From an uncultured Planctomycetaceae bacterium (GTDB lineage: Bacteria > Planctomycetota > Planctomycetia > Pirellulales > JAEUIK01), in contig CAZBWM010000023.1 in NCBI GenBank assembly GCA_964495375.1, positions 2,795 through 66,794 of the forward strand: 64,000 nt of DNA, in the 5' to 3' direction. A model generated the notes under the pieces. The model was given only the letters and a program-made list of their open reading frames with translations. It was not told the DNA's origin and did not search any database. Below are positions 14,483 through 19,867 of this stretch, one piece after another. A program made the position numbers and the translations under genes. Position 1 is the first letter of the stretch. Each line of letters begins with the position of its first letter.

Positions 14483-15562
14483 TTAGCGGTTGTACTTGAC
14501 CGGCGCCTGTCGTTCGAGCGCGCCGCGCACACCCAGCCGCCCCGGCTCACGCGCAATCTTGTCAGTAAAGACGCGCGCGTCGTCAAGAATCGGCCGTAAG
14601 CGTCGCGTCAACTGCTCGACGTTGTCGATCGTGGCGGCCAGCTTGTTGTACAACTCCGGATCGTTGAGCAACTGGCCCAGCGAGCCTTGCGAGTTGTTCA
14701 GCGCGCCGGTGAATTGCCCCATCTCGTCAAGCACCAGCGAAAGCTTTTTCGTGCTGCGCTCGATATTGCCAACGATCTCCGGACCTTGTCGCCCCAAAGG
14801 CTCGGTCAGCCCCTTGAGATTCACGAGGTTGTCGTCGACGGTTTGGAACGTTTGCTGCAAGCCGTTGAGCGTGGTGCGCGCGTCTTGCAACAGGGTTGGC
14901 AACTCGGCGACACTCTGCTTCAAATCTGCTTTGAGTTTGTCGTCCCCCAAGAACTCATTGACGCTGCCGACCGCCGTTTGCAGTCCTTCGAGCGTCGACT
15001 CGGCCTTGTCGATGATGCGGCTAAACTGCTCGTCGTTCCCTTCGAGCAAATCGTTGACGCGGCCCGCCAATTCACCAATTTGATCGCTCGTGCTGCCCAC
15101 GGAACGCAGCAAGACCGCGAAATCTCCCTGCATGTTGCCCAGCACCTTGAACGGATCGGGCGTGGCGACACCGTACATCAATTGCCCATCTTTGACCGGT
15201 GCCGTAGGTAGGCCCTTATCGGTGACGCGGACGAATTCGAGATCCGAGGCCCCCAACAGCGAGCCGGTTGAACGGCAGATGTCGTTTTCTTGCAGGGGAA
15301 CGGTTCTCTGAATGCGGGCGGTGACCATCACGCCCCCTTCGGGCGCGAAACGCACGTCGCTGACGCGGCCAATGAGGATGCCGTGCATGCGGACGGCCGT
15401 GTCGTTGCTGACGCCGCGGACTTCGGGGAAGTGAACATACACGGTGTACGAACCCTGGAGCAGTGTCGGCAATTCGCCAAACAACAGCACCAGAATGACG
15501 GTGATGATGATGACGGCCACCACCATCACGCCGACACGGAACTGTACGATGCGTTCGTCCAT
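14483..15562 (-). CDS. mlaD: MlaD/MCE family protein
   Basis: N-terminal TM, MCE domain (VRMHGILIGRVSDV), long helical tail, GSLGQLLNDPELY; third gene of the operon. Confidence 0.9.
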   Translation of the reverse strand: MDERIVQFRVGVMVVAVIIITVILVLLFGELPTLLQGSYTVYVHFPEVRGVSNDTAVRMHGILIGRVSDVRFAPEGGVMVTARIQRTVPLQENDICRSTGSLLGASDLEFVRVTDKGLPTAPVKDGQLMYGVATPDPFKVLGNMQGDFAVLLRSVGSTSDQIGELAGRVNDLLEGNDEQFSRIIDKAESTLEGLQTAVGSVNEFLGDDKLKADLKQSVAELPTLLQDARTTLNGLQQTFQTVDDNLVNLKGLTEPLGRQGPEIVGNIERSTKKLSLVLDEMGQFTGALNNSQGSLGQLLNDPELYNKLAATIDNVEQLTRRLRPILDDARVFTDKIAREPGRLGVRGALERQAPVKYNR

Positions 15563-15665: not shown

Positions 15666-16511
15666 CTAGGTATCTTCCTGAAATTCTTCGGCGTAGTGGT
15701 TTTGTTCGTACATTTCGCTGAGTCGTTCGCCCGCCTCGCCGCGCACGAACTGCGAAACGCGCGGATCGTCGGAGTGTTCGATATCCTCGGACGAGCCGTC
15801 GAAGACAATCTGCGGCTCGTCCGGTTCCAAACGCGACGTCGGATAGAACATCACGACGCGATCGGCCACCTTGTGCGTCGTGCGCATATCATGCGTAACG
15901 ATGACGCTGGTCACTGGGTAGCGCTGGCGCGTGCGCAGCATCAGTTCGTTGATCACATCGCTCATGATCGGGTCGAGCCCCGTCGTGGGTTCGTCGTAGA
16001 GCACGATCTCGGGATTCAGCGCCAACGCTCGGGCCAGACCCACGCGTTTACGCATACCGCCCGAGAGTTCTGCCGGCTTCTTGGTCACGACCGTCGAGGG
16101 GAGGCCCACTTCTTCGAGCCGAGCCAGCACGATGTCGCGGATCTCGTCTTCGCTTTTACGCGTGTGCTGTCGCAACGGGAAGGCGACGTTCTGGCCGATC
16201 GTCATGCTGTCGAACAACGCCGCCATCTGAAACACAAAGCCGAACCGCGTGCGCGCGGCCGACAGTTCGCGTTCGGTCAGCTTCGCCAGATTGCGGCCGT
16301 CGAAGCGAACTTGCCCCCGGGTGGGCGTAATCAAGCCGATCAGCGTCTTGAGCAGCACCGTCTTGCCGCAACCGCTTTCGCCGATGATCGCCAGCGTCTG
16401 CCCACGCGGAATGTGCAGGTCGATGCCGCGCAGCACTTGCTGCTTGCCAAAGGTGACATCGACGTCGTCGATATCGACCAGGAATTCGGCATTGTCGTAG
16501 GCGGCAGGCAT
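15666..16511 (-). CDS. mlaF: ABC transporter ATP-binding protein MlaF
   Basis: GESGCGKT, FVFQMAALFDSM, ELSGGMRKRVGLARA, LYDEPTTGLDP, VTHD. Confidence 0.93.
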   Translation of the reverse strand: MPAAYDNAEFLVDIDDVDVTFGKQQVLRGIDLHIPRGQTLAIIGESGCGKTVLLKTLIGLITPTRGQVRFDGRNLAKLTERELSAARTRFGFVFQMAALFDSMTIGQNVAFPLRQHTRKSEDEIRDIVLARLEEVGLPSTVVTKKPAELSGGMRKRVGLARALALNPEIVLYDEPTTGLDPIMSDVINELMLRTRQRYPVTSVIVTHDMRTTHKVADRVVMFYPTSRLEPDEPQIVFDGSSEDIEHSDDPRVSQFVRGEAGERLSEMYEQNHYAEEFQEDT

Positions 16512-16514
16512 GGG

Positions 16515-16635
16515 TAGTGATTAGTGGTCAGTGGTCAGTGGCTAGGTGATCAGTGATCAGGAATAGAGGCGCGCTAACGGTGGAAGTTGGCTGAATCGGA
16601 ATTCCTAGCCACTAGTCACTGCTCACTAGCCACTA
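16515..16635. repeat. Inverted heptamer tandem-repeat element filling the mlaE-mlaF gap
   Basis: About six YAGTGRY units at 16515-16560 and four inverted units (gccacta/gtcactg/ctcacta/gccacta) at 16608-16635. The last unit contains the mlaE stop codon. Confidence 0.8.
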
Positions 16636-17511
16636 AATGAGTTTTCCCGCGTTCGGCCAGAGGAAGTAGTACAGCGAATTGAGCACGATACCCAATTGCA
16701 GATCGAGAATCAGAATCAGCACGAACGACGTGACGAACGCGCCCGTGGCGGCGCGACCGACGCCTTCGGCGCCGGGATCGCAATAGAAGCCGCGGTGGCA
16801 ACTCAAAATGGCGATCGCCGCGCCGAAGAACAGACTTTTGAACGTGCCGCCAAATACGTCGTAAACCCCGATGAACTCCTGCGAATTCTCCCAGTACTGG
16901 TGCGAGTCGATTCCCAGCCGCACGATACTGAAGAACGCGCCGCCGACGATGCCCATGAAGTCGGCCATGATCGTCAGCGTGGGAATCAGAATCAGGCAGC
17001 CGAGGAATCGCGGCACGACCAGGTAGTGGATCGGATTGGCCCCCATGCTGGCCAGGGCGTCGATCTGTTCCGTCACGCGCATGGTGCCGAGCTCGGCCGC
17101 CATGGCGCTCCCGACGCGGCCGGCCAACATCGTGGCCGCCAGCACCGGGCCCAACTCGCGGACCAGCGACATATTGATGACCGCCCCCAATCGCGATTCG
17201 AGATTGAGCATGCGGAATTGATCGTAGCTCTGCACGGCCAGCACCATGCCGATGAACGTGCCCGTGAGCGCGACCACCGGCAGGCTGAGCACGCCAATCT
17301 GATAAAACGCGGGGAGCAGCGTCTCGCGGCGCGGCAGGCGGGTGAACATCCACGCCACGACGCGCAGTCCAAAGACCGAGACGTTGCCCAGCGCTACGAT
17401 CCAATCGACGATCAAACTGCCGAGATCGGCGACCCATTCGCTGGCGGCAGCCAGCGGTCGAAAGCGGCGGCGGGGCAATTCCCACTGCGTGTCGTCGAAG
17501 GTCGTGGCCAC
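16633..17511 (-). CDS. mlaE: MlaE family ABC transporter permease
   Basis: [61 protein letters not shown]. Confidence 0.95.
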
Positions 17512-17766
17512 GGTTGCACCTGAATTGCTAGCTAGAGACGAGAGGCAAACTGCCGGCGCGCGGCAGCGCGTGCGCCCCGCTCTGTACGCGGCTAGTTTGT
17601 CGGTAGTTTTTTCGGCCGCCAGACCTTGACGCTTGAAGCGGATTTAAGGATCGGCGAAGCTGGGTAAATTGGCGATAATCGGCAAGCATTTTGCCGTGCC
17701 CACTCGACACGAACTCGCGGCTATGCCAGCGGCTGGTCGCCAGCACGGAGGAAGCCCATTCACGCT

Positions 17767-17793
17767 CCGCGCCAGAGGTCGATTGGCCGCTTG
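17767..17793. repeat. 27-bp direct repeat, copy 1 (displaced 3' end of the oxidoreductase gene)
   Basis: ccgcgccagaggtcgattggccgcttg, identical to 18569-18595. Confidence 0.95.
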
Positions 17794-17813
17794 ACAGGCG
17801 AAGTTACAAATCC

Positions 17814-18203
17814 TCACCAAGCGCGGTGTACGCCATAGGTGTCTAAGCCCGCGTCGGCACTGAGCAAGACTGCCCCCTCGGCAAGCGCTTGGGCGACCAG
17901 TAAGCGATCGAACGGATCGCGATGGTGATGAGGGAGGGCGACAAGCCGGGCCAGATGATCCAGCTCGATCGGAAGCAGCGTGGCCGCGGTATCAGCTAGT
18001 CCTGCCTGAATCGTATTCTCGAACGACCCGCCGTGTACGACGATCTTTCCGAGGCTGACTTTGATGGCAATTTCCCACAGGCTCGCGACACTGACCAACG
18101 ATTCGTTTGCCTCGTCATCCAGCAATTGTCGTCCGCGCTGGCTTATTTTCTCGGGGTCCAACACCGACCACAGTAGGACGTGAGTATCGAGCAACAGCCT
18201 CAC
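17814..18203 (-). CDS. vapC: Type II TA toxin, PIN domain (VapC family)
   Basis: LLLDTHVLLW, SVASLWEIAIK, HHRDPFDRLLVAQA, LLSAD; GTGA overlap with the antitoxin. Confidence 0.95.
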   Translation of the reverse strand: MRLLLDTHVLLWSVLDPEKISQRGRQLLDDEANESLVSVASLWEIAIKVSLGKIVVHGGSFENTIQAGLADTAATLLPIELDHLARLVALPHHHRDPFDRLLVAQALAEGAVLLSADAGLDTYGVHRAW

Positions 18204-18427
18204 GATACGTAGTCCTCAAAGCCCTGTAAGTGCTCGTCGTCGTCGGCAATGACCTCCAATTTGCCACGCAGCGTGCCGAATTTCCGCTTACGCGGGGCGA
18301 CAGGTGGCGGAACGAGCTGCGCCACGGGCTGCGTGCCGCGGACGATCACAATCGCGTCGCCGACGCCCAGGTTGTTTACCAACTCTTCAAGGTTGGCCTT
18401 GGCTTCTTCTAAAGAAATAATGGTCAT
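18200..18427 (-). CDS. Type II TA antitoxin (Phd/YefM-like N-terminus)
   Basis: MTIISLEEAKANLEELV...IVIVRGTQPVAQLVP...RKFGTLRGK, directly upstream of the PIN toxin. Confidence 0.88.
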   Translation of the reverse strand: MTIISLEEAKANLEELVNNLGVGDAIVIVRGTQPVAQLVPPPVAPRKRKFGTLRGKLEVIADDDEHLQGFEDYVS

Positions 18428-18507
18428 GTCGGTGCCTTGAAAATGGCAATTCTGCGCCCAGGCGAGATGGCGCGGAGTCGCGAACGAACGGCGTCGCAAT
18501 CAAGGTC

Positions 18508-18513
18508 ATTATA
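18508..18513 (-). promoter_or_regulatory. -10 element (TATAAT) for the TA operon
   Basis: Perfect TATAAT on the minus strand about 80 bp upstream of the antitoxin ATG, inside the islet. No clear -35. Confidence 0.45.
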
Positions 18514-18561
18514 CGGCGAAATCGGGGAATACGGGGCGCTTGACGACAAGAATAGCGACGC

Positions 18562-19674
18562 TCACACCCCGCGCCAGAGGTCGATTGGCCGCTTGGCGTC
18601 CGTCGTAAATGGCAGCTCGATCTTGCGCCCCTGACCGGCCGAAGCGTAAGCCGCTAGCACAATCTCGAGCGTGGCGCGGCCATCTTCGCCCGTGACTAGC
18701 GGTTGCCGATCGTCGCGGACGCACTCGACAAAGTGGGCCATTTCTTGTGGAAAGCCGTAGTTCCAGTTCTCTTCGTAGATTGTGTAGCTCCAGCCGGCCG
18801 TGGTGTCGGCCTTCTCGACTGCGTAGTCGTAACCGCGCTTCGAATAGGTGTGGATCGAGTTGCCACGCAGCAGGTCGGCGTAGGCTTGCCCCTCGGAACC
18901 AAACAACTCGGCGCGGTCGTCCATGCCGCCGGGCTTGCTCCAGCTTTCTTCGGCCAGGCCCGTGCATGGAGCCTGCAGGTGGCCTCCTTCAAACTGAATG
19001 ATGATCAGGGCGTCGTCGTCGCCGGTTGTTTTGGCGGCATGCACGGTCGTCTGCATGTGGGCCAGCACGCTGGTGGCGCGCGGCGGATTGCGGCCATCGG
19101 GGCCTGAGAGCAACCAGCGGAAAAACTGAATCGCGTGGCAGCCCATGTCGAGTGTGACACCGCCGCCGCTGCGGGCCACATCGTAGAACCAAGGGGCATG
19201 CGGCCCGTCGTGCTTTTCCGATTGCTTGACCAGATGCGGGCGACCCAGCGCGCCGGAGTCGAGCAGCCCCTTGAGACGCACGTACTTCGGCGCGAAGCAC
19301 AACTCTTCGGCGTACATCAGCTTGACGTTGGCCTTGCGGCAAGCCGCGATCATCCGGTCGCACTCGTCGAGGGTGAGCGCCATCGGCTTCTCGAGCACGA
19401 CGTGCTTGCCCGCCGCTGCGGCAGCCAACACCACTTCGCAGTGCAGGTCGTTGGGGATGCCCAGTACTACGAGATCGATCTCTGGCATTGCCAAGAGTCG
19501 GCGATAGTCGGTGAAGTGGTGCGGAATGCCGCGCTTCTCGGCGAAGGCGCGCACGTGCGCTTCCGTCGGTGAGGCCACGGCCAGCACTTCGGCATTGGGC
19601 ACGCTGCGCAAGGCTTCGTAATGAATGCTGGTGATGAACTGACTGCCGAGTAAGCCGACGCCGATTTTGGACAT
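18562..19674 (-). CDS. Gfo/Idh/MocA family oxidoreductase
   Basis: IGVGLLGSQF, HVVLEKPMA, YAEELCFAP, GGGVTLDMGCH. Ends KRPIDLWRGV inside repeat copy 2. Confidence 0.93.
   Translation of the reverse strand: MSKIGVGLLGSQFITSIHYEALRSVPNAEVLAVASPTEAHVRAFAEKRGIPHHFTDYRRLLAMPEIDLVVLGIPNDLHCEVVLAAAAAGKHVVLEKPMALTLDECDRMIAACRKANVKLMYAEELCFAPKYVRLKGLLDSGALGRPHLVKQSEKHDGPHAPWFYDVARSGGGVTLDMGCHAIQFFRWLLSGPDGRNPPRATSVLAHMQTTVHAAKTTGDDDALIIIQFEGGHLQAPCTGLAEESWSKPGGMDDRAELFGSEGQAYADLLRGNSIHTYSKRGYDYAVEKADTTAGWSYTIYEENWNYGFPQEMAHFVECVRDDRQPLVTGEDGRATLEIVLAAYASAGQGRKIELPFTTDAKRPIDLWRGV
18569..18595. repeat. 27-bp direct repeat, copy 2 (within the oxidoreductase 3' end)
   Basis: Identical to 17767-17793. 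Confidence 0.95.
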
Positions 19675-19867
19675 GGCTGTGCCTATTGCGGGTGCGATTG
19701 CCGATTCTGTAGGAGTGCAGAATCGCACGAGCCGCGGCGCGGGACAAGGGCCGGCCGCCGGCGCCAGGCTATGGACTTCAGGAATGGCAGGCCGGGAATC
19801 AGGCCTCCGGTGGCAACTCATGCCGCAGGAGCGGCTTGAGATACGTCAACACTGTTGGTTGAAGAGC

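Follow-up and report, generated by a model that had tools for sequence, protein, structure and literature searches.

In a 64,000-nucleotide (nt) stretch of DNA from an uncultured Planctomycetaceae bacterium of the order Pirellulales (assembly GCA_964495375.1, contig CAZBWM010000023.1, positions 2,795 to 66,794 of the forward strand; hereafter the window), we found an antitoxin gene and a VapC toxin gene lying between two copies of the 3' end of a Gfo/Idh/MocA-family oxidoreductase gene (Gfo). We read this 802-bp unit as an old, now immobile chromosomal toxin–antitoxin (TA) islet, most likely derived from the site-specific integration of a larger element followed by decay, and we put the probability of this reading at roughly 0.55. 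The repeat is real, relatives carry filled and empty alleles of the locus, the cassette has diverged together with its flanks, the locus is a recombination mosaic, and no recombinase gene lies nearby. Nothing shows current movement of this fixed, old islet.

A duplicated gene end brackets a toxin–antitoxin pair

A repeat search of the window identified a 34-nt direct repeat with 32/34 identical positions (94%) at 17760-17793 and 18562-18595, the two copies being spaced by 802 nt. The identical core comprises the first 27 nt on the minus strand, CAAGCGGCCAATCGACCTCTGGCGCGG, and occurs exactly twice in the 64 kb. Both copies encode KRPIDLWRG(V/A) followed by a stop codon. A first-pass annotation, made from the letters alone, had described the 27-mer at 17767-17793 and 18569-18595 as bracketing a TATAAT box, an antitoxin and a VapC toxin, and had recognized it as the coding 3' end of Gfo, reading KRPIDLWRGV in one copy and KRPIDLWRGA in the other with TGA at the same offset. 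The repeat search, the open reading frames (ORFs) and the Pfam evidence bear out both statements, and the architecture is formally attL/attR-like, with the target gene end restored, as had been proposed. All genes of the locus lie on the minus strand in the order Gfo, leader, antitoxin, VapC, 20-nt spacer, distal copy, mlaE, mlaF and mlaD. The features of the islet are as follows.

18562..19821, minus strand: Gfo/Idh/MocA-family oxidoreductase gene (Pfam GFO_IDH_MocA, _C and _C3), ending KRPIDLWRGV and stop
18562..18595, minus strand: proximal repeat copy, the functional Gfo 3' end, KRPIDLWRGV and TGA
18428..18561, minus strand: cassette leader, 134 nt, with a conserved -10 box and a conserved 5' untranslated region (5'-UTR) or operator-like stretch
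18200..18427, minus strand: antitoxin, 75 amino acids, with a Phd/YefM-like N-terminal domain (Pfam PF02604, 28.4 bits against a cut-off of 29.8)
17814..18203, minus strand: VapC-type PIN-domain toxin, 129 amino acids (Pfam PIN, 46.6 bits against a cut-off of 23.6)
17794..17813, minus strand: spacer of 20 nt between the VapC stop and the distal repeat; the spacer of the related lineage L081 has the same length and is identical at 12/20 positions
17760..17793, minus strand: distal repeat copy, a non-coding duplicate of the gene end, KRPIDLWRGA and TGA, contiguous with native intergenic DNA

The repeat is confirmed as real. A chance match is ruled out, since no dinucleotide-preserving shuffle matched the 27-mer (0/100), even with 3 mismatches permitted, and the 27/34-nt repeat is the longest direct repeat at less than 20 kb spacing anywhere in the window. 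Metagenomic data in which several related strains occur side by side might raise the suspicion of an assembly artefact, such as two strains joined into a chimera. However, the same structure is present in independent assemblies from at least four studies or sources, and the diverged lineage L081 has an identical architecture, which leaves chance or artefact with a negligible probability; this possible objection, raised by the first-pass annotation itself, thus falls away. Specifically, Logan contigs of three runs from the same study, X1 (1257 nt), X3 (11,897 nt) and X2, cross both repeats and the cassette with 0 differences, and a 209-kb contig of the Joint Genome Institute (JGI; L169) carries an islet sequence identical to that of the window. 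In L081 the repeat extends beyond the stop codon to 44 nt at 91%, an extra similarity that is weak and on which we do not rely. Direct reading and an inverted-repeat search revealed no dyad symmetry or hairpin in the 27-mer, which folds no better than its shuffles; the repeat is therefore neither dif-like nor attC-like, and a structured site of either kind was rejected.

The cassette encodes an apparently ordinary VapC/Phd-YefM-type module

Judged by its domains and gene order, the TA pair appears to be an ordinary VapC/Phd-YefM-type module. Beyond the Phd/YefM-like N-terminus, the C-terminal 30 amino acids of the antitoxin weakly resemble VapB (NCBIfam, E 1.8e-4; the VapB equivalog model reaches 22 bits against a cut-off of 60), and its amino acid identity to the antitoxins of L081, L082 and L171 is 89-100%. 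VapC has a GTG start and shares its first 4 nt with the end of the antitoxin gene, and the acidic residues of the PIN domain, D6, E44, D96/D99 and D117, are invariant among 20 homologues; a Protein Data Bank sequence search with VapC gave no match. The intact acidic residues and the 4-nt gene overlap agree with a module that is functional and addictive. As is usual in this family, the antitoxin presumably neutralizes the VapC RNase and autoregulates the operon. The same antitoxin-VapC pairing is found in L081, L082, L083, L178 and L179.

The TA operon probably has a promoter of its own, as suggested by a TATAAT box at 18513..18508 on the minus strand that is kept in 4/4 cassette-bearing lineages in our alignment, and by a leader stretch, CCGTATAATG, that is invariant in the same four-lineage alignment. 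A sigma-70 consensus scan did not report the TATAAT as a promoter, since the leader offered no suitable -35 box. The G+C content of the cassette is 57-60%, compared with 60-66% in its neighbours, a slight deficit that is not diagnostic. Additionally, the VapC TGA is in frame with the distal KRPIDLWRG(A/V)-stop, 7 codons on (window 17760-17816; L081:5359-5415), and read-through of VapC into the distal remnant would add 17 residues; this match of frames is probably a coincidence (1 in 3).

The longest ORF of Gfo has 419 amino acids, and JGI calls of orthologues take an internal start that gives 370. NCBIfam returned sub-threshold, inositol 2-dehydrogenase-like matches only for the Gfo protein. 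Orthologues are present in L001, L002, L081, L082 and L089.

Close relatives carry filled and empty alleles

The cassette is an insertion/deletion polymorphism among relatives. Empty sites, in which Gfo stands directly before the mla genes with one gene end and no TA genes, were found in L089, L001 and L002, whose Gfo genes are 90.5%, 86% and 82.5% identical to that of the window at the nt level, respectively. A further empty-site contig, found in runs X6/X7 and belonging to a ~90% relative, connects position 17674 with the Gfo stop (18562); the length of the X6 contig puts ~83 nt between the two. The first-pass annotation had suggested searching relatives for the single-repeat site, and these four cases supply it; by no means all relatives carry the TA genes with both repeats. 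L089 is the closest to the window in the Gfo tree, yet it is empty. The DNA following the distal copy in the window is homologous to that following the single gene end of L089 (72.7% over 99 nt), and in L002 the stop lies ~88 nt from the conserved element upstream of mlaE, the same distance as for the distal stop of the window. As for any repeat-flanked insertion, which of the two copies is native is not decidable.

Filled sites with the same junction, in which a 20-nt spacer is followed by the repeat at a spacing of 800-802, occur in L081 (Gfo 88.6% identical in nt, VapC 91% in amino acids), in L169-L175 and in the strain of run X5; L171-L175 and the X5 strain are ~95% identical to the window genome-wide. 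A different form is seen in L082 and L176 (Gfo 83% in nt, VapC 86% in amino acids), where the TA genes with the same leader stand directly after the Gfo stop. In this 2-kb variant (L082:2456-3680) the TA genes are followed by two ORFs of 66 and 221-228 amino acids; no distal gene-end copy was detected in L082/L176 even by local alignment, and the extra ORFs of L082 had no match in Pfam, NCBIfam, PADLOC or PHROGs. We therefore rejected this variant as a larger island with a recombinase, since it offers just two unknown ORFs and no distal repeat.

Trees of the gene upstream, of Gfo and of mlaE resolve two subclades, {window, L081, L089} and {L082, L001, L002}, and each contains filled and empty genomes: the window and L081 are filled and L089 is empty in the former, while L082 is filled and L001 and L002 are empty in the latter. 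When 163 Gfo-homologue loci were scanned over 6 kb for another copy of the gene end, none had it apart from the TA-bearing loci in the subclade of the window. A recurrent att hot spot was rejected, as no other element is integrated at the Gfo gene end in these 163 loci. The one RNA set with related sequence, metatranscriptome X23, stems from a 90-95% relative; the cassette is not among the sequence it covers, which makes it uninformative.

The cassette has diverged with its flanks and shows no movement as a block

Comparison of the window with L081 gave a synonymous divergence (dS) of 0.55 for the antitoxin and 0.52 for VapC, against 0.41-0.68 for five flanking genes; with L082 the values are 0.40 and 1.20, against 0.63-1.07 for the flanks. 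As the dS of the cassette matches that of the flanks, these data point to an old resident that has been at the locus since before these lineages split. With residence that old, the patchy distribution would come from losses or allele replacement and not from recent independent gains. VapC relatives of more than 85% identity are found at this locus only, the next best being at most 64% identical and in unrelated contexts. VapC homologues on plasmids, annotated as VapC beside Phd/YefM antitoxins, reach at most 51% amino acid identity, and phages gave no DNA match to the cassette; a plasmid or phage copy of the cassette was rejected on these grounds. The first-pass annotation had further proposed looking for the same TA pair with other flanking gene-end duplications. 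That search came back empty, close TA relatives being confined to this locus.

At shorter range the divergence is uneven. Between the window and the L171 strain it is distributed as follows.

Genome-wide: ~5%
18482-17964 (5'-UTR, antitoxin and half of VapC; 519 nt): 0%
17963-17759: 2%
Beyond 17759: ~5%
18483-18561 (79 nt beside the proximal repeat): 14%
Gfo 3' end (500 nt): 10%

Read in this way, the locus is a mosaic produced by homologous recombination, with breakpoints inside the islet and tracts that cross the proximal repeat. Given where the breakpoints lie, the unit between the two repeats did not move as a whole. The zero differences over 17964-18482 between the window and L171-L174 suggest that part of the TA genes was recently converted or transferred between strains. 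The perfect 27-mer is peculiar to the window strain, the corresponding match being 26/27 in L171, 25/27 in L081 and 24/27 in X5.

We also searched for the joints that excision would produce. A circle or tandem junction of the 802-bp unit is defined as ...GTAACTTCGCCTGT-CAAGCGG...GGGGTGTGA-GCGTCGCTATTC, and a same-strain empty joint as the Gfo end directly on ATGGGCTTCCTCC with flanks otherwise 100% identical. Neither was present in 8 runs, which is weak evidence, as assembled contigs only were available and these drop rare variants.

The distal copy is better conserved than its surroundings

The distal copy differs at 5/34 positions between the window and L081, while identity is 53% in the DNA right after it, 60% in the spacer before it and 70% in the leader (binomial P 0.001-0.04 for the distal copy against neighbouring non-coding DNA). 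Moreover, the two copies have lineage-specific synonymous states in common, GCGGCCAATC in window-type strains and GCGCCCGATC in L081. These shared states suggest that the distal copy is unusually similar to the selected coding copy probably by way of occasional gene conversion.

Origin of the islet

We consider the following history the best explanation. DNA carrying a self-promoted operon of a Phd/YefM-like antitoxin and VapC would have integrated once into the last 34 nt of the Gfo gene, in the ancestor of a group of related Pirellulales lineages, leaving the gene end on both sides so that Gfo kept its C-terminus and stop codon. Most likely, a larger integrative element with an attP resembling the gene end would have entered by Campbell-type, site-specific integration, and deletions would later have stripped away everything but the addictive TA pair and the att scars. 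The resulting remnant would have been inherited with its flanks, kept by addiction and exchanged between strains by homologous recombination, and its absence from some lineages could be due either to a deletion between the repeats or to an empty allele that took its place. The remnant of a larger island was one of two origins suggested by the first-pass annotation, and it stands as the leading hypothesis; the one larger variant found, that of L082/L176, lends it no recombinase and no distal repeat.

Several points weigh against this history. No version of the islet contains a recombinase, and an integrase origin is without positive evidence. The larger variant has no distal repeat, and its two additional genes, whose function is unknown, are not mobility genes; with no other element at the Gfo gene end in 163 loci, the site is not visibly a recurrent att site. 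The history needs three or more independent losses, or else several replacements of the allele, despite the resistance of TA modules to being lost. Gfo and mlaE are not syntenic in outgroups, and the ancestral state thus cannot be polarized. Finally, the conservation of the distal copy could equally mean a function, for example as an att or recombination site or as an mla regulatory element.

The duplication could alternatively have been born of recombination, with no site-specific recombinase ever involved. Here an L082-like, repeat-less donor fragment would have entered an empty-site genome by homology-facilitated illegitimate recombination or by single-crossover insertion of a circularized fragment, one joint being homologous within Gfo and the other illegitimate, 34 nt upstream of the recipient stop; the proximal copy would be the orthologous gene end of the donor, and the distal copy that of the recipient. 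Such a donor could have looked like L082/L176, in which no repeat is present and the Gfo stop leads straight into the same leader and TATAAT, and homologous recombination is demonstrably frequent at the locus. This course would naturally explain why the similarity of the copies ends at the stop codon, and it fits both the lack of a recombinase nearby (in the islet, the L082 extra genes and the ~50 window ORFs) and the fact that most other contexts of related TA pairs are without flanking repeats. However, no microhomology or donor sequence is identifiable at the right-hand junction, the illegitimate joint must happen to fall in the last 34 nt of the gene, and the shared lineage-specific synonymous variants still demand later gene conversion. 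Such events are also rare in comparison with integrase-mediated insertion at gene 3' ends. We regard this origin as a credible but rather unlikely one.

The other origin suggested by the first-pass annotation was a minimal TA circle mobilized in trans, that is, a live integrase-free mini-element in which an 802-bp circle is excised at the 27-34-nt repeats and reinserted at the Gfo end by the recombinase of the host or of another element. The attL/attR-like architecture that restores the gene, together with the clean empty sites in close relatives, is what such an element would leave; the mobility would explain the filled/empty alternation among close relatives and the upkeep of a distal copy that is better conserved than the adjoining non-coding DNA. 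The co-variation of the two copies within lineages and the near-identity of the TA genes in two strains ~5% apart genome-wide would also fit, and the distant relative L177, with 14-nt direct repeats close on either side of its TA pair, would count as another case. Against this, the cassette co-diverges with its flanks in deeper comparisons and is found at this single locus, the 27-nt identity is not kept but decays in L171, L081 and X5, and the breakpoints lie inside the islet: the near-identical tract starts 80 nt inside it, and the 79 nt beside the proximal repeat are 14% divergent. Furthermore, the contigs of the 8 runs held no circle or same-strain empty joint, the repeat is without the dyad symmetry or hairpin expected of an Xer/dif or attC site, and no recombinase was found in the ~50 main window ORFs scanned. 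Mobilization in trans therefore fared badly, and we consider it very improbable. Were the repeat an active site for a recombinase acting in trans, it would define a very small integrase-free class of mobile TA elements.

Related TA pairs in other contexts

Related TA pairs elsewhere (L083-L088 and L177-L179) were checked for flanking repeats. L177 alone has a significant one, of 14 nt, and no flanking repeat was found in L083-L086, L178 and L179. In L177, whose VapC is 58% identical and whose antitoxin looks frameshifted, the direct repeat lies at 2225-2238 and 2898-2911, GTTAATTCCGGCCT / GTTAGTTCCGGCCT (0/200 shuffles), and a large serine recombinase gene is situated 2.2 kb upstream of the TA genes. 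L087 contains a tandem duplication of a related pair (L087:13-1462, period ~973 nt) in which the second toxin copy is cut to 35 amino acids. In L179 (L179:858-2887) a related pair (61% identical) follows, at 43 nt and with no repeat, the stop of a different Gfo/Idh/MocA-family gene of 458 amino acids; an apparent 21-nt match there was rejected as a duplicated gene end. The position of this pair behind a Gfo-type gene may be chance, as planctomycetes have many such genes.

Comparison with known systems

A literature search returned no description of TA cassettes bracketed by duplicated gene ends, the general concept of the CIME being the closest. A CIME is an att-flanked remnant of a decayed integrative element (PMC5704250). 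Likewise, the islet is a cargo flanked by direct repeats that hold the intact 3' end of the target gene, it has no recombinase inside, and relatives show empty sites. It departs from the concept in that no related integrase-bearing element at its att site was found, its cargo amounts to 2 genes (768 bp), it is as old as the split of its host lineages, its excision was not seen, and the L082 variant is without the second repeat. Neither a cognate recombinase nor a related element with an integrase was found in the islet, in L082/L176, in the ~50 window ORFs or at the 163 loci, and therefore the islet is CIME-like rather than a CIME.

Tyrosine recombinases integrate genomic islands and prophages into the 3' ends of tRNA or protein-coding genes. 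The islet has the same Campbell-type signature, in which the gene end on the element side replaces the native one with the stop at the same offset, but it lacks an integrase, an excisionase and mobility genes and is about a hundredfold smaller. Chromosomal type II VapBC-like modules with Phd/YefM-type antitoxins form small strain-variable islets, with which ours shares the antitoxin-toxin order, the 4-nt overlap, a probable promoter of its own, the PIN catalytic residues and a patchy occurrence among close relatives; most of them are without recognizable flanking repeats, whereas the islet keeps a 34-nt duplicated gene end.

TA pairs are also frequent cargo of the Xer-dependent elements (IMEX) and of the pdif modules of Acinetobacter plasmids, neither of which has an integrase. 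As in these, the islet is small, has no recombinase of its own and is bracketed by sites of about the same length (~28 nt in IMEX and pdif modules). In contrast to them, its repeat is coding and has no XerC/XerD dyad arms (2/11 arm positions are complementary on direct reading), its location is chromosomal, and its copies stand in direct rather than alternating orientation. TA cassettes of integrons are similarly small and promoter-proximal with a TA pair, but the islet is without an attC-like imperfect palindrome, an integron integrase and a cassette array.

Flanking DNA

Downstream of the islet the following features lie on the minus strand.

17512..17759, minus strand: native Gfo-mlaE spacer, including a strongly conserved ~85-nt element at ~17575-17660 upstream of mlaE
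16633..17511, minus strand: mlaE permease gene, the first downstream of the islet
16511..15666, minus strand: mlaF, after mlaE
15562..14483, minus strand: mlaD, after mlaF

The ~85-nt non-coding element (17575-17660, minus strand), CTTCGCCGATCCTTAAATCCGCTTCAAGCGTCAAGGTCTGGCGGCCGAAAAAACTACCGACAAACTAGCCGCGTAC, is near-invariant in six relatives, the adjoining spacer being ~53% identical; an Rfam search of the islet region including this element gave no match, and it may be an mla promoter or leader. In the empty-site relative L001 the Gfo-mlaE spacer contains ~190 extra nt (L001:7165-7350) bounded by an 18-nt inverted repeat, gctagcccgcatttctca / tgagaaatgcgggctagc. This extra DNA looks like a miniature inverted-repeat transposable element (MITE), and the same spacer thus seems to have taken up different DNA in different lineages. 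The mlaF-mlaE spacer has a 32-nt inverted repeat of AGTGGTC-like units (16515-16546 and 16604-16635) and is also variable, a contig of the relative in RNA run X23 having 76 other letters in place of 102 nt.

No recombinase was detected within the islet by Pfam, in agreement with the first-pass annotation, and the ~50 main ORFs of the window contain no integrase, transposase or resolvase domain. The islet ends have no terminal inverted repeats. A transposon, insertion sequence or MITE was rejected as the source of the islet itself, given the lack of terminal inverted repeats, a duplication of 34 nt instead of 2-14 nt, and no transposase found. The window holds no tRNA or tmRNA that could be a target. 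Its neighbourhood is of a housekeeping kind, with LexA, a sigma-54 two-component pair, MlaFED, DksA, Ppx, Dxs, XseA and glycosyltransferases.

Implications

If integration followed by decay is the correct explanation, its outcome is a presence/absence polymorphism in an uncultured planctomycete population, with little that would be new in principle. The islet would then be a tidy natural case of TA pairs as the last genes left when an integrated element decays, and it would indicate that a short duplicated gene end can persist, probably by gene conversion, over a dS of about 0.5-1.

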